A stretch of DNA of 64,000 nucleotides from a candidate division WOR-3 bacterium UBA2258. GTDB lineage: Bacteria > Hydrothermota > Tepidihabitantia > Tepidihabitantales > Tepidihabitantaceae. Numbering within the stretch: position 1 is the stretch's first letter; every line of letters begins with the position of its first letter. Under the pieces are notes generated by a model, which saw only the letters and a program-made list of their open reading frames with translations, was not told the DNA's origin and did no database searches. Where the stretch lies: the NCBI GenBank assembly GCA_002347155.1, contig DDXO01000013.1, forward strand, positions 3,624 to 67,623. The letters run 5' to 3'. This document shows positions 8,712 through 63,174 of the stretch, piece after piece. A program made the translations under genes and the position numbers.

Positions 8712-9060
8712 TGGAGGCGGCGGGAATTGAACCCGCGTCCGGAGAGTTCGGTTCCAGCGACCTACATGGTTAGTCAGTCGATATATCTTGGCGCACCGTT
8801 AGCCGACCGACAGGCGCGGTGAACCCAGCCCCAGAGATTCTCGGGTTACGGCCCTGAGACACGACCGCATCCCACATCACCCTTTTATACCCTGACTCCG
8901 CGCCGGGTGAGTTCGCGGGTCAAGGGGCTCCCTTAGTTAGGCAGCCAGTGCGTAGCTGTTATTGGCAGCTGTGTTTCCCCGGTCGGGATTTACGAGGTAA
9001 CCAGGGAACCTCGCCATGCACTCTGGCCCCTCAGGCACTCCGTCGAAGCCAATCGCCCCC
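8712..9060 (-). ncRNA. ssrA: tmRNA (ssrA), about 349 nt, encoding tag peptide (A)ANNSYALAA
   Basis: Minus strand reads 5' GGGGGCGAUUGGCUUCGACGG… and ends …CGCGGGUUCAAUUCCCGCCGCCUCCA, giving a 7-bp acceptor stem and T-arm. Internal ORF GCU GCC AAU AAC AGC UAC GCA CUG GCU GCC UAA encodes AANNSYALAA. Confidence 0.85.
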
Positions 9061-38775: not shown

Positions 38776-41622
38776 TCAGGAGAGCTGGCGAAGCTGGCTA
38801 GCAGCAGCCGAGTCCGACGGAACCCGTCGCAGCCACAGTTGGAGCATGGCCTTTGCCCGGGCCGTGTCGCGCAGCCTGTCGAGGTAGAGACGGACCAGCG
38901 CCTCCACGAACTCCCCGCGGCCCGGGTCCGCGTTCGCCGCCTCCAGGTAGGCCGACTCGGCCGCCCGGAATTCGCCCTTGCGCTCCAACGCGGCGCCGCG
39001 GCGCGCGACCAGGTCCGGCTGGTCGTACCCGAGGGCCCGCATGGTGTCCAGCGCCTCCAGAGCGCGGTCGTTGTCGCCGATCTGCAGCGCGTAGGTCGAG
39101 AGGTGATACAACAGCGTTATGCGGCGGTCTTTATTGAGCTCCAGCCTGCTGGCAAGGTCGAGAACGTGCTTGGCGTCGTGCGGCCGGTTCTGGCGTCGGT
39201 ACTCGTTCGCCATCGCCATGAACGTCGCTGCATAGGTGAGCAACAAACCCCTGGTGTTATCGTCTTTTTGGACGCGGGGGTCGAAGATCGAATTCATGAC
39301 GAACACGGAATCCACCAGATACCGGCTCCTCGCCAGGTCCACCTGCTCGGCACCGACGTCCGCTACGACGCGGTAGACCAGGCCTTCAAGCCGCAGGTGC
39401 GACCTCACGTCCTCGAGATTGCCCGGCGAGACCGTGCTCGCGAAGTAGACCGGGGTCCTGGGATGATAGCCTGAACCGAACACCTTGGCAGCGTACTCCT
39501 CCGGCGTCAAGCCGTAGTCATCCGGCCACTTGAGCCTGACCCCGCCCGCAGTCGCAACTATGTTGCGGACAATGATGTCCTCGAGCAGGAAAGTCCGGTT
39601 GTTCTTGCCCACGAAGCCGCGCGGCAGGCGCTCGATCTCTTGCTCGGTGAACGAGATGGGTGCACCCCACCGCTTGAGCTGCTTGACGTACCAGTTCGTG
39701 TTCAAGAGGGAGAGTATCCCGACCTTGACATTCTTGCCGAACTCCGGGTCAAAGCCGGCCACACGCGACGGCACGGTCTGCATGAACCAGAGCGGAAACG
39801 TATCGTTGTCGCCGTTCGTGAACACCACCGCATGGTCGCCCGGACATGACACCAGCATGTTGTGGCCGTACTCGGCCGCAATCCAATTGCCGCGACGCGT
39901 GACACTGGGGTAGTTCAGGAACATCGGCACGAAGGCGAACGCCAGCAGGCAGCCGGACAAAGCGTACGCCGGCGCCGGCCGGAACCGCAGCCGGTCGATT
40001 ACCGTGCGCAGGAATGCGTAAGCCCCGACACCGACGAAGATCGTGTAGAAGACGAACGAAAAGGCGTAGAAGTAGTCACGCTCGCGCACCTCGAGGTAGC
40101 CCAGCCTGCCCTGAGCCGGGTCGCCGCGCCTCGGGTCGGAAGGCGAGTACTTGAGGTTGAGGTACGTGATCAGGCCGACCGAGGCGACAAGGAACGCGAC
40201 GAGGATGAGGACGAATGACCGTCGCTCCTTCCTGAACTGATGCCACATGCCCCAAAGCCCGAGGAGCGGCGGAATGAGCCCGAGCAGCGCCTGCCAGCCG
40301 ACGTGCAGGAAGATGTCGAAGAACCGCTCGCTGCCCCATTGCCAGAAGAAATAGCGCAGGTAGAACTTCACCTGTTCGTAGTACGCAACCGCCAGACTGA
40401 ACCGCGGGTTCTGGTTCGTCCGCCAGTCGTTCTCGGTCAGGAACTGGGTTTTGCGCGGCAGGAGTTTCATCGGGTCGTACTGCTCGCGCTTGAGCACGCT
40501 GACGAAGTCGCGCCAGTTTGACGGGTCGGCCTCATTGATGCTCGGCGAATGGTGGGCGCGGATGAACATGATGAACTGCACGGTGCCGGCCAGGAGCACG
40601 AGCCCAAGCATCAGGCCGACGTACTTCGGGCTCAGTCGCTTCTGTCGATGCAGCCAGTACAGGTATCCGCCGTAACTGGCTACGAGCAGCACGAACAGCG
40701 CCGGCGAGTGCACCCAGCGCTCGATGAACGCCACCGTCGGCGAGGCGAGGAACAGCACGGTGTCGTCCATTATCCTGTTCCCGGCCGCCACATAGGCGAT
40801 GACGAAGACGAGGAAGAACAGCCCGAGGCCGTAGAACACCGACCGCGTGTGAGTCGAGCGCTCCATCACCCTGATTCCGTACCACGCCGCCGCCAGCATC
40901 AACGGCGCGGCGACGAACGTGCCGATGCCGAGGCCCAACTCGTTGACGGTCAGTATCGTCAGGTAGGCGGCCAGCAGCTCGAATATCCTGAGTTGCAGCA
41001 CCGAATCGCGGTCCACAACCAGAACGAAGACCAGCACCGCGAAAACGGTCATCATCGGCGTGAAGTGGATGCCGGTGGAGAGAAAGAGCAGGTACATCGC
41101 CGCGAGTATCAGCCGGTTGTCGGCTGCCCCTTGCCTGATGCGGTCCCGCCACAACAGGGCCATGTACAGAACCGAAAGGGCGACGACCACACAGGGCCCG
41201 TACACCTCAGCCTCGACCGAATTGTCCCAGAAGGAAAACGCAAAGGCGCAGGCCATGGCGCCAAAGACACCGGCAACGTGCGGGAGCCACTTGTCGTAGC
41301 GACGTTCGGCGCTGGCATAGAGCGAGATGAGTTTGACCACAAGCAGGTAGATGAGCCCGCACGAGAAGGCGCCGAAAAGCACCGGAATCAGACCGATCCG
41401 GAATGCGATCTCCCTGGCCAGCGGGAGCATGGCGAAAACACGGCCCAGGGTCACGAACAGCGGTGTGCCCGGCGGGTGCGGCACACCCATGATGTAGGAG
41501 GCGGCAATCAGCTCACCGCAGTCCCAGAATGCGGCGGTCGGCGCCGCGCTGTACAGGTACACCCCGGCCACGACGGCAAACACCGCCGCAAACACGATCA
41601 GCCTGGTCCTTAGCTGATTCAC
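38776..41622 (-). CDS. DUF2723/TPR membrane protein; paralog B (tandem duplicate)
   Basis: 948 aa, collinear and about 70% identical to paralog A. Confidence 0.7.
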   Translation of the reverse strand: MNQLRTRLIVFAAVFAVVAGVYLYSAAPTAAFWDCGELIAASYIMGVPHPPGTPLFVTLGRVFAMLPLAREIAFRIGLIPVLFGAFSCGLIYLLVVKLISLYASAERRYDKWLPHVAGVFGAMACAFAFSFWDNSVEAEVYGPCVVVALSVLYMALLWRDRIRQGAADNRLILAAMYLLFLSTGIHFTPMMTVFAVLVFVLVVDRDSVLQLRIFELLAAYLTILTVNELGLGIGTFVAAPLMLAAAWYGIRVMERSTHTRSVFYGLGLFFLVFVIAYVAAGNRIMDDTVLFLASPTVAFIERWVHSPALFVLLVASYGGYLYWLHRQKRLSPKYVGLMLGLVLLAGTVQFIMFIRAHHSPSINEADPSNWRDFVSVLKREQYDPMKLLPRKTQFLTENDWRTNQNPRFSLAVAYYEQVKFYLRYFFWQWGSERFFDIFLHVGWQALLGLIPPLLGLWGMWHQFRKERRSFVLILVAFLVASVGLITYLNLKYSPSDPRRGDPAQGRLGYLEVRERDYFYAFSFVFYTIFVGVGAYAFLRTVIDRLRFRPAPAYALSGCLLAFAFVPMFLNYPSVTRRGNWIAAEYGHNMLVSCPGDHAVVFTNGDNDTFPLWFMQTVPSRVAGFDPEFGKNVKVGILSLLNTNWYVKQLKRWGAPISFTEQEIERLPRGFVGKNNRTFLLEDIIVRNIVATAGGVRLKWPDDYGLTPEEYAAKVFGSGYHPRTPVYFASTVSPGNLEDVRSHLRLEGLVYRVVADVGAEQVDLARSRYLVDSVFVMNSIFDPRVQKDDNTRGLLLTYAATFMAMANEYRRQNRPHDAKHVLDLASRLELNKDRRITLLYHLSTYALQIGDNDRALEALDTMRALGYDQPDLVARRGAALERKGEFRAAESAYLEAANADPGRGEFVEALVRLYLDRLRDTARAKAMLQLWLRRVPSDSAAASQLRQLS

Positions 41623-50571: not shown

Positions 50572-50846
50572 GTGCCAAGACTACCCCGAAACGCCCGCCA
50601 TTCAAGAACGGTGGGCTCAGACAACGCCGGCCGCCCCAGAACCGACATTGAGGCCACGAAAGCGCGAAGGACACGAAACCGATCGGTGCAGAACATCCCG
50701 ATTCCGTCTCACTCAGTCTTCGTGTCTTGGCCTCAGCGGCCCCTGTCGGACAGTGCGTGGCTGTCAATACCGGAATCAGGCAGCCGCAGTCGCGTTGACT
50801 TGGCTTCCGAGCGAAGTAGAATAGAAGGAAGATCAGAGGCAAGACT

Positions 50847-51077
50847 ATGAAGTTCACACGCATCACGATTGACCCGCTCCAGATGGGCGGCGTCCCCTGC
50901 ATTCGGGGACTGAGGATTCCGGTCGCCACCATCGTGGGCATGTTCGCGGATGGCATGGCCGAGGGCGAGATACTCAAGGCCTACCCGGACCTCGAGACCG
51001 AGGACATCCGCGAGGCCATGCGCTATGCCGCAGAAGCAGTGCGCGAGCGCGAACTGCCGCTGCTGGTCGCTGATTGA
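50847..51077 (+). CDS. DUF433-family small protein (putative antitoxin)
   Basis: 76 aa, sequence …[48 protein letters not shown]17-TAGAAT promoter at 50796. Confidence 0.6.
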
Positions 51078-51463
51078 AGTTCCTCGTAGACAATGCCCTC
51101 TCGCCCGACGTGGCCGTGGCATTGTGTCGGGCCGGACACGATGCGGCGCACGTCCGGGACAAGGGAATCCGTGACGCCGACGACGAGACGGTCTTTGCCT
51201 GCGCCGCCCGCGAAGGAAGAATCCTCATTTCTGCGGACACCGACTTTGGACAGATTCTCGCGCGCCGGGCTCTCAAACAGCCGTCGGTCATCCTGTTCCG
51301 GCGTCGGACCGAACGGCGGCCCGAACGTCAGGTCGCCCTGCTGCTGAAGAACCTGCCTGGCGTCACTGAGGCGCTCGAGTCGGGCAGCGTCGTTGTCTTC
51401 GAGCAGGCCCGAGTCCGCGTCCGTGCCCTGCCCCTGGCCGGGAGCACGAACGATTCCGCCTGA
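51074..51463 (+). CDS. DUF5615 (PIN-like/Mut7-C) protein, putative toxin partner of DUF433
   Basis: [11 protein letters not shown]…[11 protein letters not shown]. 4-bp overlap with DUF433. Confidence 0.6.
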
Positions 51464-51764: not shown

Positions 51765-52067
51765 TTCTACGTTGATTAGGAATTAGGAATTGGGAATTGG
51801 CACCGCGGTATTCGGCAATGGTCGTGGCCCCGATGCAGCTCAGGTTTCCCCGAGCCAGCGCCGGCTTCATGATATGGGCCGCGTCCATGCTCCCCTCGGC
51901 CCTGCCCGCGGCGCGCGTCAGGGATCGCGTGCTGTGTCACCGGGGCTTACTGATACCGCCAACTGCAAACTGCGAACTGGTAACTCGCGCGCAGCGCGTG
52001 GGGCTTGGTGTCGTGCCCGTTTCTAGCCGAGTCACTTGACACGCTTCCGACCAGAAAAAAGGGGAAG

Positions 52068-52226
52068 TGTGGGGCTGTTGAAAAAGGGCATCTCTGCGTT
52101 CTGTCAGCGTGGCGGACAGAATGACGCCGGTGGAAGTAACGCTACTGCGGCGGTTACGGACGAGCACTTCTGCGTGAAGCCTCAGGTCGGCTGCAAGGTA
52201 GGGTTTTTCAACGGCCCCAGTGTCCC
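52068..52226. repeat. MITE-like element with terminal inverted repeats; copy B of the family at 33077-33217
   Basis: Ends TGTGGGGCTGTTGAAAAA / TTTTTCAACGGCCCCAGTGTCCC. Sits between the Clp remnant and the CBASS effector gene. Confidence 0.45.
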
Positions 52227-52298
52227 GCATTTCTTACCATGTCCCCGGAACTCAGAGTCTGCAATCGGAAGCGTGTCGCGTGCCCCGATGCCCTCGTA

Positions 52299-53519
52299 TC
52301 ATTCCAGAAGAGCGGCCTTCTCGTACCGTCCAACTAGGCCAGTCGGATGATACTCGTACGTCTGCACCGGTCCGATGGCGTTAAGCAGCTGTCCCAGCAT
52401 GAACGCCAGTCCCAGTGGTACTGACGCGAATAGGTGGACCCGCCCCGATGCCCGACACTCATCACGCGTGCGTCTAATACAGTCAACCACCTGGTGTGCC
52501 ATGTCTATCGCCTGCCCCACTGAAAGTGGAGTTGCGCCCGCGTCTGGACTAGCTACTTCGACGACGTTCCGAAAGCGAGGAAGTGCTTCCTGAGCAGCGT
52601 CGAACGCTGGCCTAGTATTGTGTGATGCGGAAATGAGCACGGCGATGTCCTCGGCAGCCACACATCCCCGCGCTGTGGTTATCCTGCAGTTCCAGGCCGT
52701 CCTGCCCAAGTGGAGACCCCACGGATTCAGGACTCCGCTCGGAGGCATGTTCTGAAGCCAGCATGCCCTCATCCCGGTTGGGAGGCAGAACGCGTGCCCC
52801 AGCGCCACTGCGGCGGGAATCGACGCCAGTCCATCGAAGGCCACCTCTCTGTCGTGCATTACCTCGTGGACTTGGCGAGCCACCTCCCGGAGTGCCGGAA
52901 GCAGCCGTGATGCCCAAGCGTCGGGGGACACGGCAATCCTGCCGTCGAAATGGCCTGACCACTCTAGGTTCAGTGCTTTGTCTGGGTCGAAGGGAGAACG
53001 TGACCGCGTATGCAGCGAGATACGTAGCGGCATGTCTGGCCGCGCTCTCAGCCGGATCCGCTTGAGTCTCTCGCGCAGGACTACCCGCACGACATCCATG
53101 GCGCCGCCGATGTCCAGAGGATCTCGGGGGACGCGCACTACGTTCCAGACGTCGAGGTCCTGATTGCCAAATCGCGGACGAAGAAGCGAATTCGCTTCGT
53201 CGTAGCTAAGTCCTCCCGCCAGTGCGAAAACGATGAAGAACCCATCGTTGCGCCCGTGTCGTTCGAACGCGAGCGGACATTCGATACGCTGGATGACAGG
53301 TGATTCCCTGACCTCTGGGGTCAACAGTACGACGGCGTTCGCAATGAACTCGTCTGCGAGCACCGTTCGTATTTCATCTTCTGTCTGCTCCGGCGCGAGG
53401 TCGCTGACGTCTTGCCAGGTCGGAATTCCCAAGAGGTGCTGAGCCTCCACCAGCAGTTGCGCCTCCTTCAGTCTGCATCTCTTGTACACAAGGTACGAGC
53501 GACCCGACGGGGCGGTCAC
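52299..53519 (-). CDS. Putative CBASS effector: an N-terminal TIR-like domain fused to a C-terminal SAVED-like sensor domain
   Basis: Last gene of a translationally coupled CD-NTase/HORMA/TRIP13 operon (4-bp overlaps). N-terminus SYLVYKRCRLKEAQLLV…AVVLLTPEVRESPVIQR fits a TIR/STIR pattern. C-terminal 270 aa includes HLFASVPLGLAFMLGQLL. Confidence 0.45.
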   Translation of the reverse strand: MTAPSGRSYLVYKRCRLKEAQLLVEAQHLLGIPTWQDVSDLAPEQTEDEIRTVLADEFIANAVVLLTPEVRESPVIQRIECPLAFERHGRNDGFFIVFALAGGLSYDEANSLLRPRFGNQDLDVWNVVRVPRDPLDIGGAMDVVRVVLRERLKRIRLRARPDMPLRISLHTRSRSPFDPDKALNLEWSGHFDGRIAVSPDAWASRLLPALREVARQVHEVMHDREVAFDGLASIPAAVALGHAFCLPTGMRACWLQNMPPSGVLNPWGLHLGRTAWNCRITTARGCVAAEDIAVLISASHNTRPAFDAAQEALPRFRNVVEVASPDAGATPLSVGQAIDMAHQVVDCIRRTRDECRASGRVHLFASVPLGLAFMLGQLLNAIGPVQTYEYHPTGLVGRYEKAALLE

Positions 53520-54451
53520 GAACCACTCCCTCTGAATGGCGGCGTAGGCTGCATCGACATAGCGAGGTCACGAGCGTTCGTGAAGGTGATGGGCACATCC
53601 GCTGAAGCGGCGCCCAACACTAGCTGGGGTACGAACCTCTGCAGAATGTCCGAGTAGGTGTACCCATAGTCACGGCCATCACGGGGTCCCATGGCCTCTG
53701 CTATATCGTGGAGTTGCGCGCCTGAGAACATCGCCCCATTCAGTGCTGTCTTGAGTACCTGTAGGCACTTCGCTAGGTCGGGCCGACGGAAGACAAACGT
53801 CTCGACCGCCCGCCTGCAGACCGCGGGGTCAATGGCCTCCGCTCGGTTGGTGCAGAGGATCACCGCGATGGGCAGTTGTCCGGTAGTGATATCGTCGATG
53901 CCTCTTATGAGGGCATTCACACCCGCGCGGTCCTCATGGTGCATGTGCAGGGCCGATCGTGACTGAGCGAGGGCATCAGCCTCGTCGACAAGAAGCAGGG
54001 CCAGTCCCGAGGCCTGCCCTCGCCCCCGCTTGCGGTCAGCGCTGAAGCCCCGGACTTCTGCAAACGCGTCACCGAGGAGCTTGGTCATCTCACCGACTAT
54101 CCCGGTACCACGGACCCTGAGGCTCAGTCGGAACAGCGTGACCGGTATCTTCTCCGTCTTGGCGACCGCTGCCCCCAGCGTCTCGCCCAGCGCCGTCTTG
54201 CCTGTGCCGACGTCTCCACCGAAGATCACAAGGCGCGGGAGCGCCGTGAGTCCGCGGGCGAAAGCGACGCCGTTGCGGTGATGCTTCTTTGCCCAATTGT
54301 CGATGCATGCCGGGTCTGCCACAAGGTGAAGGTAGTCCGTCACTCGTTTCTTCACGTCATCCAAGCCCACAAGGTCAGCATAGCGGGCGAGAGCCTCGCC
54401 GTTGGGAAACTTGACTACCTCGTCGAATAGGTCGATATTCGGAGTCGTCAT
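53516..54451 (-). CDS. TRIP13/Pch2-like AAA+ ATPase (Cap6-like)
   Basis: Walker A FGGDVGTGKTALGETL and Walker B LLLVDEADAL. Position between the HORMA-like and effector genes. Confidence 0.6.
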   Translation of the reverse strand: MTTPNIDLFDEVVKFPNGEALARYADLVGLDDVKKRVTDYLHLVADPACIDNWAKKHHRNGVAFARGLTALPRLVIFGGDVGTGKTALGETLGAAVAKTEKIPVTLFRLSLRVRGTGIVGEMTKLLGDAFAEVRGFSADRKRGRGQASGLALLLVDEADALAQSRSALHMHHEDRAGVNALIRGIDDITTGQLPIAVILCTNRAEAIDPAVCRRAVETFVFRRPDLAKCLQVLKTALNGAMFSGAQLHDIAEAMGPRDGRDYGYTYSDILQRFVPQLVLGAASADVPITFTNARDLAMSMQPTPPFRGSGS

Positions 54452-54996
54452 GGCGATGTCAGGAGGCCTCTTCGGAGACTGCCTCCGTCCTTAGTGTACG
54501 TCTTTCCGTACTGCCACCAACTACTGCCGGTGCCGGGCTCGGTTGCAGGGGTCCTTCTGAACGGTAGGCGCGCTGCCACTTCCTCCTGTTGCTCCGCAGT
54601 CAAACCGTACCACTTCGAGCTGGGCACCAGGAACGAGTACCATGTCGAGCCTTCGGTATCCTTCCCAGGCGGGATGCTACCAGGATGGTCGTCCGCGAGC
54701 GTTACGCCGTCATAGCTTGCATCGTAACTTACGGCCAAGACCCAGGCACCGTTACGGACATAGCCGTATTTGACAGACTGCACGTATCCGCCTGCGAGCA
54801 GTACGACCAGTTCCACTACGCACTTGCCGATCGTATCATCTATTGGCTCACCGGCGTACAGCAGCTGTATCTGCCGCAAGTCTGCTGCGACCTTGGCAAC
54901 CAAATAGCGTGCGCTCTGATGTGTGAAGCTGGAGGTGCGTGTGAATGTGCCGCTCACTGTGCCCTCCCGAAAGCCGCACCCATGACGCCTTGCCAC
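54448..54996 (-). CDS. HORMA-like protein (Cap7-like). The start may be internal (GTG at about 54957)
   Basis: 182 aa. Lies between the CD-NTase and the TRIP13-like ATPase, as in type III CBASS. No enzymatic motif. Confidence 0.4.
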   Translation of the reverse strand: MARRHGCGFREGTVSGTFTRTSSFTHQSARYLVAKVAADLRQIQLLYAGEPIDDTIGKCVVELVVLLAGGYVQSVKYGYVRNGAWVLAVSYDASYDGVTLADDHPGSIPPGKDTEGSTWYSFLVPSSKWYGLTAEQQEEVAARLPFRRTPATEPGTGSSWWQYGKTYTKDGGSLRRGLLTSP

Positions 54997-55952
54997 AGTT
55001 CCATGTTCTCGCCCTTGGTCGTCGCATAGCAGGCGTAGGTGACGGCATTGAAGGCAGCCTGAGCGCAGCTTACGAGCTTGGCCCGGTCGCCCTCAGTATA
55101 GCCGTCAGCCACGTTGTTCGTCGGGTTCACCGGGTCGAAGATCTCAATGGCCGCTCCGGTCGGACCGGGAAGTTCGGTTGCCTTGTAGTTGTCGGTGAAA
55201 CTGATCCGAGACCGAAGACCGGTGCGCACTATGTAACCGAAGAACTTCTCGATGGCGTTTCGATAGTCTGAGCAGTCCATGCCGTTATCCGCAAGGTGCG
55301 CACATATGAGCTCGATCATGAAGGACTTGCACCTGAAGGTGGCGTCCTCTTCTCTGCGCTCAGCGGCCCACCACTTCAGCAAGCGAATCACTTGCGCAAA
55401 GTGCCTAGGCTGCTTTTCCTTTCTGGCTCGGATGAACTGCAGGTGCAGAGGAATGCTGGTCAGTAGCCGCTTGCCCGTGTCTCTTGAGACAAGGTAGCCC
55501 CTGTCGTCAGCGCCACCCTCATATACGACAGGCGCGACCTCCACGTCAAGGTCCGACCCCTTGAATGAGATGCACACCGTATGGTCCTGTGGCTGGAACT
55601 GGTCTGGCTCCATCTTGCCTTTGTAGGCGTCGCGGAGCTTTTCCGTGAGCCAGGTCAGGATTGCAGGCTCATCACTGGGCGCACCTTCGGATGATATGTA
55701 GATGGCGACGTCCATATCATTGAGCGAACTCAGTGCCGTACCCTTCGCCACGCTACCAGACCTCAGTATCTTGACAAAACTGTAGTCCGGGTGCTCTAAG
55801 ATGAACTCGGCTACCCTATCGCAGACTCGGTCGAGCTGCTCGCGGAATCCCTTGAGTTCGTCCCGACTGATGTTGACAACGTTGCCTGCGAATGTAGCTA
55901 TCTCAGTGTGCCCAATTCTGGGCTCTTGGGACCCGTGTTCTGCATCAGGCAT
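54954..55952 (-). CDS. cGAS/DncV-like nucleotidyltransferase (CD-NTase) of a type III CBASS operon
   Basis: Pol-beta NTase signature GSVAKGTALSSLNDMDVAIYI plus a third acidic residue in SDLDVEV. Start set at the second Met (55950-52), which has a GGGGGG ribosome-binding site and lies 2 nt after the upstream gene stop. Confidence 0.65.
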   Translation of the reverse strand: MPDAEHGSQEPRIGHTEIATFAGNVVNISRDELKGFREQLDRVCDRVAEFILEHPDYSFVKILRSGSVAKGTALSSLNDMDVAIYISSEGAPSDEPAILTWLTEKLRDAYKGKMEPDQFQPQDHTVCISFKGSDLDVEVAPVVYEGGADDRGYLVSRDTGKRLLTSIPLHLQFIRARKEKQPRHFAQVIRLLKWWAAERREEDATFRCKSFMIELICAHLADNGMDCSDYRNAIEKFFGYIVRTGLRSRISFTDNYKATELPGPTGAAIEIFDPVNPTNNVADGYTEGDRAKLVSCAQAAFNAVTYACYATTKGENMELWQGVMGAAFGRAQ

Positions 55953-57240
55953 CGCGGCCCCCCTGCGTACGCATCGCCTCGGGCTGGTGGCCATTGGTGT
56001 TCACCGTTCGGTCCATGTCGACGCCAAGTAGTTCCACATAGGCCGCCTTGACCCTGTCGTGCAACTGGAGCCAGAGGTTGCCGTTCTTCCCTGCCGCGTT
56101 CGGGTTGGCCCCAAGACCGCGGCACGTATCGAAGGCGATCCTCCACAGGCTCCCTCCGAACCGAAGCCAGAACTGACGAAGGTCTGAAACCTTCCACGTC
56201 AGCCCAGAATCCGTCTTCTTCAGCAGGAATCTGAGAGACGCCAAGACTGGATACACGACGCCGTCCGGGATGTAGTAGTTGATCTTCTCGTCGCGCCCAA
56301 CAGGTCCTTTCCAGAAGTGAAGAGTAGTCTTGCGCCGCTGGTCGACGAAGCTAAGCCGGAGGAACCTGCCGCCATCCCCTTCGGAGTTGTACTGGTCACG
56401 CGCGTAGTAGCGGATGAAGTCGTACATCTGGAGAATGTCCCGCAGCACTGGCCGCAGGGCTTCGTAATCCGCTGCGTTGTCCTCGAACGTGGAAAGGACC
56501 CTGGCCTTGGAGACATACGCATCCAGCGGGTGGTTCTTCTCGTTGTACTTCTCCACGTTGAACAGCGTCATCAAGGCGATTACGTCCCTAACGCTGAAGG
56601 GCTCTGGGCCGAACATCTTGTACTGAATCACGTCGCTCCAATCGCGCAGTTCCTCTTTGAGCCAGATGAACTTGTGAGCAAGGTTGAGCAAGGAACGATC
56701 GTCCACTTGAACCGATGTATTGCGGGTTTCAGCCAGATCTATTATGAGATTGCGGTCCAGCCCCGTCAGCACTTCCAGCCGCACGAATTGCGGTTTGGTC
56801 TCGTCGGCCGAGTCAGGGCACACCGTCCACTCATCCGGAGATGAGACCACCTGCCGAATGATGCGATACGTGTGTCCACCGTCGATGATACCATGTACGT
56901 CCTCGTCGTCGAACACGAGGCGAAGAGCCTCCTTCTTGTTGTCGTAGTCCGCCTCCGCCACGGAGAGAGTTATTCCACGATTCAGCATGTGGAACTTGCC
57001 GTCGCGGCGACGTAGCGATGAGGCGATGTCCTTCGCTACTGCGGTGGTCAGCTTCTGCTCGCGGGGGTTGGTTTTCTCCAACGGCAGGTCGCGTTTGTTC
57101 GCGATTTCCTCGACGTTACACAGCGCGTAAAAGCTGTCGCCGAAGTCGTTGGGATTCTTCAGCCGGCGGACATTGTCAGGGCGGACCTGATAGGATATGA
57201 CGAACTTACTGTTGGGAGGCATTACCTCTCCTTTTGGCAT
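55945..57240 (-). CDS. AIPR/DGQHR-like (ParB-nuclease-superfamily-like) abortive-infection-type protein
   Basis: 431 aa. Motifs MLNRGITL and IIDGGHTYRII resemble the AIPR NNGIT and DndB DGQHR boxes. Sits between the R-M genes and CBASS, 2 nt from the CD-NTase start. Confidence 0.35.
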   Translation of the reverse strand: MPKGEVMPPNSKFVISYQVRPDNVRRLKNPNDFGDSFYALCNVEEIANKRDLPLEKTNPREQKLTTAVAKDIASSLRRRDGKFHMLNRGITLSVAEADYDNKKEALRLVFDDEDVHGIIDGGHTYRIIRQVVSSPDEWTVCPDSADETKPQFVRLEVLTGLDRNLIIDLAETRNTSVQVDDRSLLNLAHKFIWLKEELRDWSDVIQYKMFGPEPFSVRDVIALMTLFNVEKYNEKNHPLDAYVSKARVLSTFEDNAADYEALRPVLRDILQMYDFIRYYARDQYNSEGDGGRFLRLSFVDQRRKTTLHFWKGPVGRDEKINYYIPDGVVYPVLASLRFLLKKTDSGLTWKVSDLRQFWLRFGGSLWRIAFDTCRGLGANPNAAGKNGNLWLQLHDRVKAAYVELLGVDMDRTVNTNGHQPEAMRTQGGRDA

Positions 57241-57428
57241 TTACTCCCGTGCGTAGGATGCCATCCTGTCGCACTCGGCCTAGCTGCAATATGCAGCAGG
57301 CGTATAGATGATACCCCAAAAGGCCCTCGCGTCAAGATCAGGAGTGCCAGTTTCTATCGCGGCGATCACAGACGGCCGATTTGGAGTTGGCCTTCATCGA
57401 GGACATGCTGGACGTACGGGCCAGGAAG

Positions 57429-58049
57429 TCAAATGCGCGGGAGCGACACCGTGTTTGCTCCGCCATTCAGAACGTCCACGAGGACAAAGAATTCCTTGTC
57501 GTGGACCATAGGGTTGTAGTTCATGGGGACGGCGTCGCGGTTGACCATGATGATCCTGAAATCAGCCTCTACGGCAGGTTCCCGTAGCTTCTTGAGCGCC
57601 GCGCATTTCTTCTTCTGGAAGAACGTGTCTGCGACGTTGAATGCCTCGCCCACAAGCCTAACACCGTTTGACTCTGCCTCGATGTCGAAGCCCGTCGCTC
57701 CTTCATTGCCGTACTTCACGGTGTACGCCTTGAATGGAAACTGCCCGCTATTGCCAAAAAGGTGTCTTACCCCGTGGAGGATGACCAAGTCAGTCATAAC
57801 GCGATTGGCCCCTTCAAACCATGAGAGCGCCTTCGAATAGGGCCAATTCCTGACCTTCTCTCTCTTGAGCGCGTGCATCAGTTGCAGCCCGAACTTGGCT
57901 GCAATAGGGCCCAGGTTGAGGGTCTCTGCCCGCCTCGTGTATTCGGTGACGGATCGTCGGATGTTTGATTTGGTGAGCCTGGATGGCGGCATCGACCACT
58001 TAGGGAATGAGATTCCGCCCGGCCGGGCCTTCACCTTCATCGCCGACAT
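57429..58049 (-). CDS. Hypothetical protein in the R-M/defense module
   Basis: 207 aa from MSAMKVKARPGG…. Possible acidic motif FDIEAES…VGEAF. Co-directional with neighbours and 10 nt from the upstream gene. Confidence 0.35.
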   Translation of the reverse strand: MSAMKVKARPGGISFPKWSMPPSRLTKSNIRRSVTEYTRRAETLNLGPIAAKFGLQLMHALKREKVRNWPYSKALSWFEGANRVMTDLVILHGVRHLFGNSGQFPFKAYTVKYGNEGATGFDIEAESNGVRLVGEAFNVADTFFQKKKCAALKKLREPAVEADFRIIMVNRDAVPMNYNPMVHDKEFFVLVDVLNGGANTVSLPRI

Positions 58050-58059
58050 GCCACATCCC

Positions 58060-58920
58060 TCACTTGAGGGTGGTGGCACTGGCTTCGTCCGGCGGTTCGA
58101 TGCCAAGATACTCCCGATAGATACGCTCGCGATACTTCGGCCCTATCTCGTTTACGGCAGCGATGAAGGACTTGTACGTCCCTCTGCCGCCAATCTTGTC
58201 CCAGAACTCGTCGCCGATAAGCACCACTTCGTCTTCGCGCATGTTGAACCAGCGCGCGGGGAAACTCCATGCGTAGTCTTCTCGGCGACCGTATGGGTTG
58301 TATGGCAGCGCGTAGTACGCCGCCGTGACCTGCCGGGGTTCCATGCTGTAGAGCTTCAGCATCTTCTCTTTGCTAACCTTGGTCTGGTCGCTGTTCGGCA
58401 GCGGGGCTTTCAGCTCGAAGGCGTAGCTCTCGCCGGTCTTCTTGCTCTTTGCATACACGTCGCATATCACGGTAACGGGGACCGCGTTTCCCTTGCCGGC
58501 CAGTATGTAGGAAAGTTCCTTATTCCAGTCGGGCTTTGTGCGGGCAGTCCCTCTCGCTGTATGCTCCAAGCGATTCAGGGTTTCCATTATGCGACGAAGC
58601 CTCTCCGCGCCCACGGTTCCGGATATCTCGTACCCCACGGCCCCAAAGCCCAGGCCCTGCTCTGCTGCTGTCCGAGCAAGAACTTCCCAAGCAGTGCCGA
58701 ATGGAGTGACGAATCGTCTCTCAAAGTGCGAGCCCTTGAACACCTCATCCGGCACGAGGGCAGCGTAGAGCGGTCTCTTAGCCCGATGCTGGTCAACGAG
58801 GAAGGGGTCTTTCACGAGCACCTTCTCCATGACGCGGTCCATCATCGCGGATATGACGGCCTGAATCGCGACCTTTACGCTTGCGCGCCGGTCCGCGGCC
58901 ATTGCATCGTTGTCTTCCAT
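58060..58920 (-). CDS. Putative PD-(D/E)xK restriction endonuclease (type II R-M partner)
   Basis: Candidate catalytic core …VICDVYAKSKKTGESYAFELKAP (D…ExK). 4 nt downstream of the methyltransferase. Confidence 0.45.
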   Translation of the reverse strand: MEDNDAMAADRRASVKVAIQAVISAMMDRVMEKVLVKDPFLVDQHRAKRPLYAALVPDEVFKGSHFERRFVTPFGTAWEVLARTAAEQGLGFGAVGYEISGTVGAERLRRIMETLNRLEHTARGTARTKPDWNKELSYILAGKGNAVPVTVICDVYAKSKKTGESYAFELKAPLPNSDQTKVSKEKMLKLYSMEPRQVTAAYYALPYNPYGRREDYAWSFPARWFNMREDEVVLIGDEFWDKIGGRGTYKSFIAAVNEIGPKYRERIYREYLGIEPPDEASATTLK

Positions 58921-58924
58921 GTGG

Positions 58925-60229
58925 CTACGCCTTTCTCCAAACCAGGACGTTCTCGTAGAAGTCGCCGCTGCGTCTCCCTGTGCGGCGGTTCACGTGTCTG
59001 CGCAGAATGTGCTCGACCCGAACTCCAACACGTTTGGCTATTCCGCCATAGAGGTCGTGACGGTCGCCGACTACTACGACCATGACTCCATCTTTGGTCA
59101 AGTGCTTGAGCGTGTGGTCGAAGACGTCCGAGATGCCGTCCACATAGGCCTGTTTCGCCTTCACGGATGATCCTCGCTTGGCTGGCCCTATCTCCTGAGG
59201 TTCAGCGGACCGACTCAGCCCGAGAAGTTCATAGGCATACCTGTGTTGTTCATGGTAGTCAATAAGCCCGACGTAAGGCGGCGACGTCATGACCATCTCG
59301 ACCTTGGGAAACTTGATGAGGCGTGCGTCGCCATTGATGACGGACACGGCGGCATCCTTGCGCAGCCGGGTGTATTCACGAACGCGGGCGAGCGTGTCCC
59401 AGCAATAGCGCACGATGAACTTGTACGCACTTGTGGTCGGATGGCAGGTGCGGCTGTGCTTGTAGCAGTCGTATGGTTCGGTCTGCGGGCGCTTTGGGAA
59501 GTCGAGGTCGAAGTGAGTCGTCTGCCGCGCCGACCGGGCGGCGCGGCTCAGGATGACCTTCAAAAGATCCTGATGTTCGTGTTGCGGAATCAGGTCACGG
59601 AACGTAAGTAGCTCAGAAAGCGCCCGCGGGTGGAACCACTTGGTCAGATACTCGTTGTCGGTCGTCCTTAGTTCGTGGTCCCCGAAAAGAGATGGCTCCT
59701 GACTTGCGTGGGCCAGTTCGTTGAATTCCCGCAGGATGCCCTTGATGTCGCGGTCCACACGAACGATGTCATAGCGGGCGGTCTTCACTCCGGCGAGAAG
59801 GCAGTTGAACGGCGAGATGTCGCAGCCAATCGAGTCAATGCCGAGTACGGAAGCCTCAACCAATGTGGTTCCAGACCCGCAGAACGGGTCGTACACCCGC
59901 CGCGGCGCGTACTTGCGCAGGAAAATCTCCACCAGTTGAGGTATGTACTTGCCGAGGTAGGGATGGAGCCTGTGGACGTGCTTGGTTCTAATGCGTTCCG
60001 GCAGGTCGTGCTCGCGCCAGTTGAGGTTAAGTGTTCCAAGGAGCGTGTCGGTGGTGACGCTTGCGAAGTCGGTTAAGGGCGGAGCGTCATAGATTGGGTT
60101 GTAGCCAAGTGGCGCATCGCTGGCCAGAAGCTGGTCACCGTTAGTTTCCTCTGTGTCGTTAGCATCACGAACGACCGGCCTGCGCAGCTTGCTCTTGGAA
60201 GCCCGGCGGGTAGGGCGTTTCTTGGCCAC
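58925..60229 (-). CDS. DNA methyltransferase (N6-adenine or N4-cytosine), alpha-type motif order
   Basis: Motif I VYDPFCGSGTT and motif IV TSPPY. Basic N-terminal tail. Confidence 0.8.
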   Translation of the reverse strand: MAKKRPTRRASKSKLRRPVVRDANDTEETNGDQLLASDAPLGYNPIYDAPPLTDFASVTTDTLLGTLNLNWREHDLPERIRTKHVHRLHPYLGKYIPQLVEIFLRKYAPRRVYDPFCGSGTTLVEASVLGIDSIGCDISPFNCLLAGVKTARYDIVRVDRDIKGILREFNELAHASQEPSLFGDHELRTTDNEYLTKWFHPRALSELLTFRDLIPQHEHQDLLKVILSRAARSARQTTHFDLDFPKRPQTEPYDCYKHSRTCHPTTSAYKFIVRYCWDTLARVREYTRLRKDAAVSVINGDARLIKFPKVEMVMTSPPYVGLIDYHEQHRYAYELLGLSRSAEPQEIGPAKRGSSVKAKQAYVDGISDVFDHTLKHLTKDGVMVVVVGDRHDLYGGIAKRVGVRVEHILRRHVNRRTGRRSGDFYENVLVWRKA

Positions 60230-60338
60230 GGCCTAATCTACGCAATCGGCGTGGACAGTCAAGCGGGCGCGCGGGCAGGGTGAGGCGCGGCGGAGGCGAT
60301 GGCGACTGTAGAACGAGACTGAGGAGTGAGGTCGGAGG

Positions 60339-60371
60339 ATGGAGGATTCACGTCAGGACCTGAGGACGGAG
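60339..60371. repeat. 33-bp direct repeat ATGGAGGATTCACGTCAGGACCTGAGGACGGAG; left copy, in purine-rich low-complexity DNA
   Basis: Identical copy at 61311-61343. The two copies bracket the MazEF-like module. Confidence 0.6.
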
Positions 60372-60594
60372 CACAGCGCGCGTAGGACGCGCAAGTCAAA
60401 GTGCAAAATGCAGATATCAAAATGCAGAATGCCACGAAGTGGAATCTGCCACGAAATCAGGAGCAAGGAAGAGACCATCTTCGCGAAAACAGGGACGATG
60501 TGGCGTTGCAGTACGGAGGCGCGACGGAGACGTCGGGGGAAGGACGGAAGATGGAAGAATGAGGATGCAGGATGGAGGGCGGAGGAGCGGAATC

Positions 60595-60936
60595 TTAACT
60601 CATCAGCCAATCTGCCAATCGGCGCTTGATGCGTTGCAGTCTGTCCGGCATGACCTGGCCGATGGCCCCGAGAAACACGCGCTCTTCCGCGACCGCCAGT
60701 CGGCCAACGCGAACCAGGCTTGCAGCCTTGAGTCCGCTCGCTGAATAGTCGGCGTCGTCTTCTCGAATCACTTCATCAAACCCGGGGACTTGGAGGTGAA
60801 CCTGCGAGGACACCATGCTGATGAGCCAATCGCCGAATCTGCCCGGCAGCTTCCCGATGACCAAGGCCGGACGCAGCTTGCCTGAGTCGAGATCAGTCTG
60901 GGGAAACCGAAAGAGTACGACCTGGCCAGGCCGCAC
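60595..60936 (-). CDS. MazF/PemK-family toxin
   Basis: Sequence MRPGQVVLFRFPQTDLDSGKLRPALVIG… is the PemK fold signature. Confidence 0.7.
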   Translation of the reverse strand: MRPGQVVLFRFPQTDLDSGKLRPALVIGKLPGRFGDWLISMVSSQVHLQVPGFDEVIREDDADYSASGLKAASLVRVGRLAVAEERVFLGAIGQVMPDRLQRIKRRLADWLMS

Positions 60937-61160
60937 TACGAAAACACTTCCTTCAGGTCGGACGGTGAGTAGGTTGGACTTTCCTCGTTCTCCATCCCCC
61001 GCATGGCGCTGGACAGCGAGAAGCTCATCCAGTCTCGGTCTTGGTCAATGGCCTCGCCGTCGCCTCTGTCCCGCAGGGACTTCACGAAATCGCGCACCTC
61101 AGCCTGGAGCTTGTCCGGGAGACCTTTCATCAGTCTGATTGTCTCTTCGACTGTACTCAT
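60936..61160 (-). CDS. Small antitoxin (DUF2281-like) coupled to the MazF-like toxin
   Basis: 74 aa. ATGA overlap with the toxin. …LQAEVRDFVKSLRD… pattern. Confidence 0.5.
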   Translation of the reverse strand: MSTVEETIRLMKGLPDKLQAEVRDFVKSLRDRGDGEAIDQDRDWMSFSLSSAMRGMENEESPTYSPSDLKEVFS

Positions 61161-61310
61161 AGTTGCACCTTCTTACGTTGAGCCAATATAGCCCGACTAA
61201 CCAGCCAAGTCAAGCGGCAGCCGGGCGGCGCGGCGCAGCGGAGGTGAGAAAAAGAGAGAGGACTGAGGAATGAGGAAGGAGGAATCCGGGAATAGGATGG
61301 AGGTCGGAGA

Positions 61311-61343
61311 ATGGAGGATTCACGTCAGGACCTGAGGACGGAG
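61311..61343. repeat. 33-bp direct repeat; right copy
   Basis: Perfect match to 60339-60371, also preceded by GACTGAGGARTGAGG. Confidence 0.6.
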
Positions 61344-61386
61344 GACGAGAAAAGGAGTGAAGATGGAGGAATGAGGATGGAGGAAC

Positions 61387-61829
61387 TCACAGTCTGCGTC
61401 TCCGGGATTTCGAAGGTCTATCGCGGGCGATGAAGTCGGAGCTGGGACCGGTTCGGTCATCGTCCAAGGTCACAATTTGTGATCTTAGAGCCGCCTCGCT
61501 TGAGGTCACATTTTGTGACCTCAAAGCCCGCGCCTCGTCATCGGTCAACTGGAACATGAAGTCCTCGGGGAAGCGCCCGGCGTTGCGCTTGGCGGCCTGG
61601 TTTAAAGCCTTGGTGCTCACGCGTAGAGCGCGGCGAGGTCGCGACTCAGCATCACCTTCTTCCCCCGGATGACCAGAATCGCCCCTTCGATCCGCTCAGA
61701 CGGAATCAGGTAACCAGTGTCGGCCGCTGCCATTGTTCCCTGCCGCAGCGAAGAACGATAAACGTCCTGACGAAGAACGGCGTGCGCGCTCCACCAGCGT
61801 GCTTCAGCACGAGTGAGTATGTTAGGCAT
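61387..61829 (-). pseudogene. Frameshifted ORF6N-domain (KilA-N/RhuM-like) gene
   Basis: N-terminus …ILVIRGKKVMLSRDLAALYA in one frame and …FMFQLTDDEARALRSQNVTS…RSQIVTL in another. Internal 23-bp direct repeat at 61470/61503. Confidence 0.5.
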
Positions 61830-61861
61830 GAAATGACGTTAGTCAAGCCCAAGCCGGCCCC

Positions 61862-61985
61862 CCAGACCCGACATTGAACCACAAAGACACCAAGAACACC
61901 AAGCAGACAGAGCCGACTTCCGTCCTCACCCTCTTTGTGTCTTGGTGCCTTGGTGGTGATCTCCTATGTCGGATTCTGGGCGGCC
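61862..61985. repeat. MITE-like element, short copy of the 13125-13350 family
   Basis: Left end CCCCAGACCCGACATTGAACCACAAAGACACCAAGAACACCAAGCAGACAGAGCCG; right end CTCTTTGTGTCTTGGTGCCTTGGTGG…GTCGGATTCTGGG (inverted). Confidence 0.45.
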
Positions 61986-62109
61986 CAAGGCGGCCTACGG
62001 TCGACGGCCTCCTGGCATTTCAGATTGCAGGTTGCAGATTGGAGATTGCAGATTGATCCGGATGAGCAGCAGCCATGCCGGGTGGCTCGGTCTGTGGGTG
62101 TTGTGCGGG

Positions 62110-63174
62110 CTACTTGCGGCGGAAGAAGCGGTCCAGGCCGTCGAGGGCTAGGTCGGCGAACTTGCGGGCGAGGTCCTTGTCCTTGCATTTCTCGAGTGCA
62201 TCGGCCAGCACTTTTTCACGCTCAGGCGTTCTGGGCAGCGTGTCGTAGGCGTCGCTCGCAAGCGACGTAAGCCAATTGTCCCACAGGGACCACTCGGCAG
62301 CCGAACGGTCCGCGGTCTGGACCGCTGCGGTCGCAGCGGAGAGCGCCGTCGTAATGTACGCCTGCCGAGTGAGCATTTCCGGGGTCATCGTTCTCTTCTG
62401 ACGCTCAAGCCAGGTCGGCTTGCGGCGCGGTTTCGGCGGCTCGGGCTCGGCCCCGAACGCGCCGGTCGTTTCCATCCGGCTGAAGAGCTCGACCACGCGG
62501 TCGCGCACCAGCCTCACGTCCTTCTCGGAGAGCACATGCGCGGCCACACCTTCACCGACAACCCGCGCCATCCGCCTGAGCCGCACGTGCCCCAGCCTCC
62601 CCCGGGTCGAGCTGAGCGCACCCCAGAACTTCCTTGCGAGGAGATGAAGGTACTGCCGCTCGGTGGCGGCAAGGCCGTGCCCGACCTCTGTCTCAAGGTA
62701 CTTCACGAGGATGTCGAGTCGCTTGCGCCGGCTGGCTGCCGCTGCCAGGTTCACGACCCGCTTCACCCGCTCTTCTGAGGATAGCGGCGGCTTGCCCTCG
62801 AACCGCCTTGCCACGGTCGTCTTGATGTCGTACGCGAGCGCCTGATTCCCGATCTGTGCGGGCAGGACATCGGTCACCCTGGCTACTGCCTCGCTTCCCT
62901 GTTTCTCGACCGGCAACGGTTGTGAAGTGTACTGGTCCAGCAGATCGGCAATCTCGCTGAAGCTCGCCCGGCACGCCCGCAGGTAGTCGGCCACCAGCGA
63001 TAGAGTGGGGTTCGAGTGCAGGCCTGACTCCAGCCGCGACACCAACGCCTGATCCAGACTGCCGCCGGCAAGTCCAGCCAGCTCAGCCTGAGTCAGCGAG
63101 GCCCTTTTGCGGAGTGACCGCAGCCTCAGGCCCAGCTCCCTGGTCATCGGCAAGTCGTCAGTTTCTCGGCTCAA
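62110..63174 (-). CDS. XRE-family HTH transcriptional regulator with a long C-terminal domain
   Basis: HTH region LRSLRKRASLTQAELAGLAGGSLDQALVSRLESG. Confidence 0.6.
   Translation of the reverse strand: MSRETDDLPMTRELGLRLRSLRKRASLTQAELAGLAGGSLDQALVSRLESGLHSNPTLSLVADYLRACRASFSEIADLLDQYTSQPLPVEKQGSEAVARVTDVLPAQIGNQALAYDIKTTVARRFEGKPPLSSEERVKRVVNLAAAASRRKRLDILVKYLETEVGHGLAATERQYLHLLARKFWGALSSTRGRLGHVRLRRMARVVGEGVAAHVLSEKDVRLVRDRVVELFSRMETTGAFGAEPEPPKPRRKPTWLERQKRTMTPEMLTRQAYITTALSAATAAVQTADRSAAEWSLWDNWLTSLASDAYDTLPRTPEREKVLADALEKCKDKDLARKFADLALDGLDRFFRRK

Follow-up and report, generated by a model that had tools for sequence, protein, structure and literature searches.

A one-HORMA type III CBASS operon with a TIR-SAVED effector in a candidate division WOR-3 bacterium

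The type III cyclic oligonucleotide-based antiphage signalling system (CBASS) of Escherichia coli MS115-1 (CdnC-HORMA-Trip13/Pch2-NucC; bioRxiv 10.1101/694695; PDB 6P80, 6P8V, 6U7B) is the prototype with which we compare a four-gene operon found at positions 52299–55952 of a 64,000-nucleotide stretch of DNA (hereafter the window) from the candidate division WOR-3 bacterium UBA2258 (GenBank assembly GCA_002347155.1, contig DDXO01000013.1, positions 3,624 to 67,623 of the forward strand). In the E. coli system, a closed HORMA protein and double-stranded DNA activate the CdnC cyclase, which then produces cyclic tri-AMP (cAAA, or cA3), while the ATPase Pch2/Trip13 engages the N-terminus of HORMA, dismantles the complex and inhibits cAAA synthesis (bioRxiv 10.1101/694695). 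We consider it very probable that the operon in the window is an intact anti-phage operon of the same one-HORMA subtype, CdnC-HORMA-TRIP13, in which a TIR-SAVED NADase, an enzyme that would hydrolyse nicotinamide adenine dinucleotide (NAD+), replaces the endonuclease NucC. The first three genes stand in the same order in both operons, and the predicted signal, cAAA, is also the same; the predicted outcome, however, is NAD+ depletion for the system in the window and chromosome destruction for that of E. coli. Furthermore, unlike the E. coli operon, the one described here is adjoined by a gene for an AIPR protein.

For the effector, the comparison is with the TIR-SAVED protein of Microbacterium ketosireducens (Hogrel et al., bioRxiv 10.1101/2022.05.04.490601; PDB 7QQK), in which cA3 is sandwiched between the SAVED domains of head-to-tail neighbours, and assembly creates composite TIR sites that hydrolyse NAD+. 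The two proteins are alike in their two-domain architecture and full-length fold, in the catalytic glutamate (E84 in M. ketosireducens, E80 here), and in the Asp-Leu pair of the BB loop. At the adenine-stacking position, the effector in the window has an aromatic residue, but most of its relatives have histidine. The M. ketosireducens protein belongs to a type II-C CBASS with Cap2 and Cap3 rather than to a HORMA/TRIP13 operon, and its solved chain comprises 433 residues, as compared with the 406 amino acids (aa) of the effector in the window. TIR-SAVED proteins are also ancillary effectors of type III CRISPR-Cas systems (Hoikkala et al. 2024, PMC11229360), and the roughly 406-aa family of the window occurs in such a setting too, but there Cas10, not a CD-NTase (cGAS/DncV-like nucleotidyltransferase), generates the signal; the cA3-activated TSR1 (bioRxiv 10.64898/2026.09.16.751991) contains an extra Crn4 ring-nuclease domain, which is absent from the effector described here. 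The identical four-gene order is present in Leifsonia aquatica DSM 20146 (NZ_JACHVP010000001.1, locus L049), as an uncharacterised operon, and in the CdnC-HORMA-TRIP13-TIR-SAVED operons of public genomes the effector is 28–47% identical to that of the window over the best aligned segments. The searchable literature yielded neither an experiment on a CBASS that combines HORMA and TRIP13 with a TIR-SAVED effector nor an explicit statement on how frequent TIR effectors are in type III CBASS. The classification made by Millman et al. in 2020 is said to include several effector types for type III CBASS.

Both the list of open reading frames (ORFs) and the sequence itself confirmed that four co-directional genes fill positions 52299–55952 on the minus strand, exactly where the original prediction, made from the letters of the DNA and such an ORF list, had placed four coupled genes. 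The genes, their junctions and the tools that identified them are as follows:

54954–55952, minus strand: CD-NTase of the CdnC type, 332 aa, ATG start at 55952 (PADLOC, NCBIfam, phmmer)
54954–54957, minus strand: CdnC/HORMA junction, GTGA, 4-nt start/stop overlap (sequence)
54448–54957, minus strand: HORMA protein, bacHORMA_1, Cap7-like, 169 aa, GTG start (Pfam, PADLOC, phmmer)
54448–54451, minus strand: HORMA/TRIP13 junction, ATGA, 4-nt start/stop overlap (sequence)
53516–54451, minus strand: TRIP13/Pch2-like AAA+ ATPase, Cap6-like, 311 aa (PADLOC, Pfam, phmmer)
53516–53519, minus strand: TRIP13/TIR-SAVED junction, GTGA, 4-nt start/stop overlap (sequence)
52299–53519, minus strand: TIR-SAVED effector, 406 aa (PADLOC, Pfam, phmmer, AlphaFold2 and Foldseek)

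Since start and stop codons overlap by 4 nt at all three internal junctions, it is fair to call the genes translationally coupled. Two of the starts required a choice: in the mechanical ORF list, the CD-NTase frame is open back to 55994, upstream of the ATG at 55952, and the HORMA frame is listed from 54996, which makes it longer than the 169-aa GTG form. We preferred the 332-aa CD-NTase because residue 12 of this form is where the alignment with E. coli CdnC starts, and the 169-aa HORMA protein because the Pfam and PADLOC matches begin at residue 14–15 of the longer form; moreover, independent gene calls in other assemblies agree with both choices. A terminator scan of the operon strand found no candidate site, and no regulator of the CapW or CapH/CapP type was seen adjoining the operon. 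The GC content of the operon is 0.59–0.60, that of the window about 0.62.

The CD-NTase matched the PADLOC cyclase family PDLC00808 (E 7e-112), scored 359 bits against the NCBIfam equivalog CBASS_cyclase_a ('CBASS oligonucleotide cyclase', cut-off 200) and aligned with E. coli MS115-1 CdnC (6P80) over residues 12–328 (phmmer, 1e-91). Its nucleotidyltransferase signature consists of G66-S67, D79-M-D81 and D136, and the active site is intact, its three aspartates corresponding in the alignment to D72, D74 and D128 of E. coli CdnC; D72 and D74 are the residues whose mutation was used to inactivate that enzyme (bioRxiv 10.1101/694695). The protein is a predicted cyclic tri-AMP synthase. The product of the small second gene was matched by Pfam bacHORMA_1 (2.1e-36; 125.7 bits, cut-off 35.6), by the PADLOC HORMA profile (1.3e-45) and by the E. 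coli MS115-1 HORMA chain 6P8V_H (phmmer, 5.4e-28), while NCBIfam contained no model for it; we predict that it is the activator of CdnC. The third protein matched PADLOC TRIP13 (PDLC00914, 2.5e-106) and Pfam AAA (5.8e-14), as well as, in phmmer comparisons, the Rhizobiales Pch2 6PB3 (7.7e-80) and the E. coli ATPase 6P8V_A (8.8e-76), and in NCBIfam it gave only weak matches to generic AAA+ models, far under their cut-offs. Both of its nucleotide-binding motifs, Walker A (G79DVGTGKT) and Walker B (V155DEAD), are intact, and its predicted role is that of a negative regulator, taking the complex of HORMA and CdnC apart.

One subtype of type III CBASS combines a single HORMA protein with a CdnC-type (clade C01) cyclase; the alternative has two HORMA proteins (bacHORMA_2 and Cap8) and a CdnD-type cyclase. 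The operon in the window is of the one-HORMA subtype: its only HORMA gene falls into bacHORMA_1, and its cyclase, like that of the Leifsonia locus, into PDLC00808; two-HORMA loci use instead PDLC00809, PDLC00915, and either PDLC00881/00882 or bacHORMA_2/Cap8.

The effector consists of two domains, whose coordinates within the gene are:

53124–53519, minus strand: TIR domain, about residues 1–132, with E80 in R-I-E-C-P and the BB-loop pair D40-L41
52302–53042, minus strand: SAVED sensor domain, about residues 160–406, preceded by a long linker helix (residues 137–158)

The PADLOC profile SAVED5--SAVED_TIR covered residues 1–405 of this protein (3.7e-64), Pfam SAVED covered residues 211–403 (2.4e-24; 86.5 bits, cut-off 26.2), and NCBIfam SAVED (3.8e-26) and the M. 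ketosireducens TIR-SAVED 7QQK (phmmer, 4.3e-11) matched it as well. An AlphaFold2 model built from an alignment of 29 diverse relatives reached a mean pLDDT of 91.8 and a pTM of 0.91. The model has alternating strands and helices at residues 7–129, then the long helix and then the SAVED domain, which continues to the C-terminus. In a Foldseek search with this model, the best PDB match was 7qqk_A, superposed over the full length (E 2e-19, TM 0.76/0.72, 22% identity), and the next matches were the SAVED domains of Cap4 and Cap5. E80 aligns with the catalytic E84 of the M. ketosireducens protein and D40-L41 with its BB-loop pair D45-L46; E84Q and D45A/L46A inactivate the NADase of that protein (bioRxiv 10.1101/2022.05.04.490601). 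Within the 29-sequence alignment, E80 is invariant and L41 nearly so, and the effector departs from the family consensus by conservative changes only. At the stacking position, Y390 aligns with W394, for which stacking on an adenine of cA3 had been predicted and a W394A variant tested (bioRxiv 10.1101/2022.05.04.490601). We assign the N-terminal domain to the TIR class because its match to the PADLOC profile agrees with the residue alignment and with the structure model, and we predict that the effector is a cA3-activated NADase.

These results bear out most of the original prediction, which had proposed a type III CBASS organisation comprising a CD-NTase with a GS…DhD signature, a small HORMA-sized gene, a Walker A/B AAA+ ATPase and a protein with a TIR-like N-terminus and a SAVED C-terminus. 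All four kinds of component were found by profile searches, the acidic triad of the cyclase is conserved in the alignment with CdnC, and the glutamate of the TIR domain is conserved too. Both checks that it had suggested and that we ran, the family profile searches and the structural superposition, gave positive results: with the exception of Pfam TIR, every family was matched far beyond chance (E from 1e-45 for HORMA to 7e-112 for the cyclase).

By analogy with the characterised systems, we infer a signal molecule, an NADase activity, a mode of assembly and a defence phenotype for this operon. In the uninfected cell, the TRIP13-like ATPase would hold HORMA open, away from the cyclase. Upon infection, HORMA would close round a foreign peptide, bind CdnC and activate it, possibly with the participation of DNA, and the activated CdnC would synthesize cA3. 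Binding of cA3 to the SAVED domain of the effector would then lead to head-to-tail assembly, in which the TIR domains would form composite active sites and hydrolyse NAD+, such that metabolism and phage replication would stop (abortive infection). We favour cA3 as the signal because the types of system that host this effector family include characterised examples that make it: P. aeruginosa CdnD produces cA3 (bioRxiv 10.1101/694695), and so do type III CRISPR complexes and the type II-C CBASS of M. ketosireducens (bioRxiv 10.1101/2022.05.04.490601).

We then determined how common the effector family is and in which contexts it occurs. In a word-indexed protein search, in which only 8000 candidates were scored and the 120 best relatives listed, the family comprised at least 377 clusters (90% identity) at E ≤ 1e-5. 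A single peptide pattern, scanned against a collection with one representative genome for each species, yielded 71 loci (L001–L071) from many groups, among them, judging by record titles, Acidobacteriota, Dehalococcoidia and other Chloroflexi, planctomycetes, actinobacteria, proteobacteria and Verrucomicrobiales. Contrary to the original prediction, TIR-SAVED effectors are therefore not rare. Nor is this one unusually short, since nearly all of the 120 best relatives are 404–417 aa long and the PADLOC profile itself has 404 positions. None of the loci in the species-representative scan encodes an effector that exceeds 45% full-length identity to that of the window.

In 23 of the 71 loci, relatives of CdnC, HORMA and TRIP13 adjoin the effector (tblastn), most of them in the order seen in the window. 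For one of these, that of the cultured L. aquatica DSM 20146, profiles confirmed the four-gene order and assigned the proteins to the same PADLOC families. A two-HORMA type III CBASS lies next to the effector in at least 6 of the 71, and in at least 13 the effector directly follows the Cmr genes (Cmr3-Cmr6) of a type III-B CRISPR-Cas system. Among the other 29 loci, profiles identified L003, the one so checked, as a type II CBASS comprising a cyclase, a Cap2-like E1/E2 protein and a Cap3-like JAB protein, and about ten more have a distant CD-NTase match upstream at similar spacing, likely reflecting type II CBASS. These contexts interleave in a rough neighbour-joining tree, drawn without support values. 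With one family standing behind four kinds of signal generator, the TIR-SAVED effector looks like an interchangeable module. The operon in the window is thus one more example of a catalogued and frequently occurring CBASS architecture. Its effector belongs to a small clade (P0002–P0004; 57–90% identity) that has so far been seen only in metagenomes. No close relative was found in a plasmid collection, which contained haloarchaeal relatives at 29–34% identity, mostly beside ThiF/Cap2-type genes, and partial SAVED matches on a few bacterial plasmids.

Among the places shown for the locus itself, the identical sequence occurs in metagenome-derived assemblies only. Of its less closely related counterparts, one JGI metagenome contig (L074) stands out. 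Its nucleotide identity to the window is 87–97% across the 3' end of the HORMA gene and TRIP13, and falls sharply to 49–68% through the whole of the effector gene, which is of equal length (window 53394–54769 aligned with L074 1–1376, continuing to L074 2471). At the protein level, the identities are 97% for the available part of HORMA, 91% for TRIP13 and 57% for the effector; the sensor module is about 92% identical to that of the window. The break lies about 100–130 nt into the effector gene, near window position 53400. Since two further relatives show an even level of nucleotide identity to the window along their length (about 89% in one, about 67% in the other), L074 looks like a recombinant with a different effector allele, and the break suggests that an effector allele was replaced by recombination.

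A separate observation concerns another assembly of the same locus (L072, 99.98% identical), which contains a 1314-nt insertion with a DDE_Tnp_1 transposase (L072 5738–7051). The insertion point corresponds to window positions 50783–50791, where the matches on either side share 9 nt; a target-site duplication would account for this. This indicates strain-level polymorphism for an insertion sequence (IS).

The operon is surrounded by other genes of a defensive or toxin-antitoxin nature, listed here together with a promoter-like site:

51074–51463, plus strand: PIN/DUF5615 toxin gene, for which a DUF433 partner is called in another assembly
55945–57240, minus strand: AIPR gene, of an abortive-infection family (Pfam)
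57308–57335, minus strand: sigma-70-like promoter match upstream of AIPR, TTGACG-16-TATCAT, 10/12 (consensus scan only)
57429–58106, minus strand: 225-aa ORF between the restriction enzyme gene and AIPR, overlapping the 3' end of the restriction enzyme ORF
58060–58920, minus strand: TdeIII-type restriction enzyme (Pfam, 2e-69)
58925–60229, minus strand: N6/N4 DNA methyltransferase, partner of the TdeIII enzyme (PADLOC MTase_II, 6e-90)
60595–61160, minus strand: PemK/MazF gene and its small upstream partner
61387–61829, minus strand: ORF6N-domain gene, as two adjacent ORF fragments
62110–63174: helix-turn-helix (HTH) protein

With its CBASS, type II restriction-modification pair, AIPR gene and toxin-antitoxin modules, the stretch at about 52–62 kb looks like a defence island. 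NCBIfam had no model for the AIPR or TdeIII-like proteins. The 225-aa ORF, which was without a match in Pfam, PADLOC and NCBIfam, may be an uncharacterised defence-island gene, and the two ORF6N fragments look like a frameshifted pseudogene. Over about 10 kb (about 52000–62000), GC content drops to 0.565–0.60, compared with 0.61–0.65 elsewhere in the window, and the third-position GC of the island genes is 0.66–0.75, compared with 0.79–0.83 in two housekeeping genes, an aminotransferase gene and one that we read from its sequence as encoding an ABC-F-type ATPase. Both differences are consistent with horizontal acquisition of the whole island.

Elsewhere in the window, we noted a tmRNA gene with the tag peptide ANNSYALAA (8712–9060, minus strand) and two adjoining ORFs of 948 aa each (35755–38601 and 38776–41622, minus strand), of which the first encodes a TMEM260-like O-mannosyltransferase domain and tetratricopeptide (TPR) repeats.

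Several findings weigh against the interpretation of the operon as a cA3-driven NADase system in all its steps. Pfam TIR models gave no match to the effector at E values up to 0.1, the only match being a chance-level one to Myb, although precomputed PF13676 matches are on record for four of its relatives. With the one TIR-SAVED protein of known assembly, the effector shares only about 22% identity. In that alignment, the interface arginine R388 pairs with G383, a glycine that is nearly invariant in the family, with no adjoining basic residue, so that the filament interface of the effector may differ from the M. ketosireducens type; at an identity of only about 22%, however, the R388 mismatch weakens the claim of an identical interface and not membership in the TIR-SAVED class. 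The residue equivalent to W394 is histidine in 86% of the aligned relatives, rather than tryptophan or tyrosine. Moreover, other TIR-SAVED proteins have been connected with different ligands, a haloarchaeal one reportedly sensing cyclic di-AMP (c-di-AMP) and cyclic tetra-AMP (cA4) having been tentatively proposed for a CRISPR-linked one, so that domain architecture does not fix ligand specificity. For these reasons, ligand and assembly geometry are the least secure steps of the proposed mechanism. The same system might use another signal, for example c-di-AMP, cA4, a 2'-5'-linked trinucleotide or cyclic AMP-AMP-GMP (cAAG), instead of 3',3',3'-cA3; the tyrosine found here in place of the stacking tryptophan is compatible with this, as is the finding that E. 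coli CdnC yields cAA as a minor product (bioRxiv 10.1101/694695). We regard this as unlikely, given that cAAA is the major product of CdnC, which the cyclase matches closely and with a conserved active site, that the PDB structure nearest to the effector model is that of a cA3-bound protein, and that the effector family is shared among system types with characterised cA3-producing members. There is a similarly small chance that the roughly 406-aa family assembles or is activated unlike the M. ketosireducens filament, for example with another oligomer geometry or ligand, or, as a separate matter, that L074 reflects an ongoing replacement of effector alleles driven by phage counter-defence against the effector.

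With cA3 signalling to a TIR-SAVED NADase remaining the preferred interpretation, two further questions concern the extent of the operon and whether it is functional. Around its stop codon, AIPR shares 8 nt (ATGCCTGA) with the start of CdnC, leaving no intergenic gap, AIPR adjoins the CBASS in the independent assemblies shown with the exact locus, and the strongest promoter-like match in a scan of the operon strand is situated upstream of the AIPR gene. This match is a possible, unproven transcription start for AIPR and CBASS together, and its position makes read-through transcription plausible. AIPR might accordingly be thought a functional fifth component, for example a second effector or sensor, but we rejected this as the leading interpretation and rate the idea as very improbable: in the 71 related loci, no relative of AIPR occurs within 7 kb, and the closest AIPR relatives reside in a cassette of their own (a small HTH_31 protein, a 152–156-aa protein, then AIPR) with no CBASS nearby. 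Furthermore, the overlap with CdnC is created by a 16-residue C-terminal extension that these relatives lack and that, on an otherwise full-length AIPR, looks like accidental read-through at the joining of modules. The pair seems to consist of two defence modules that came to lie side by side by chance and may be co-transcribed. Even less credible is the notion that the operon is a decayed or silent remnant in its source genome. Some neighbours in the lower-GC island do appear to be decaying, as the fragmented ORF6N gene suggests, and an IS element has inserted close by in another assembly; however, all four ORFs are full length relative to the profiles and retain their catalytic residues, the effector's deviations from the family consensus are conservative, and its ORF is intact in the relative at about 89% nucleotide identity.

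Beyond a correct annotation, the value of this operon is small, and its composition will not surprise a specialist. It may nevertheless, like the L. aquatica operon, serve as a test case for the coupling of HORMA peptide sensing to NAD+ depletion. The survey shows a single effector family serving one-HORMA CBASS, two-HORMA CBASS, type II CBASS and type III CRISPR-Cas, and the mosaic relative L074 supplies a concrete recombination breakpoint at the boundary between sensor and effector.

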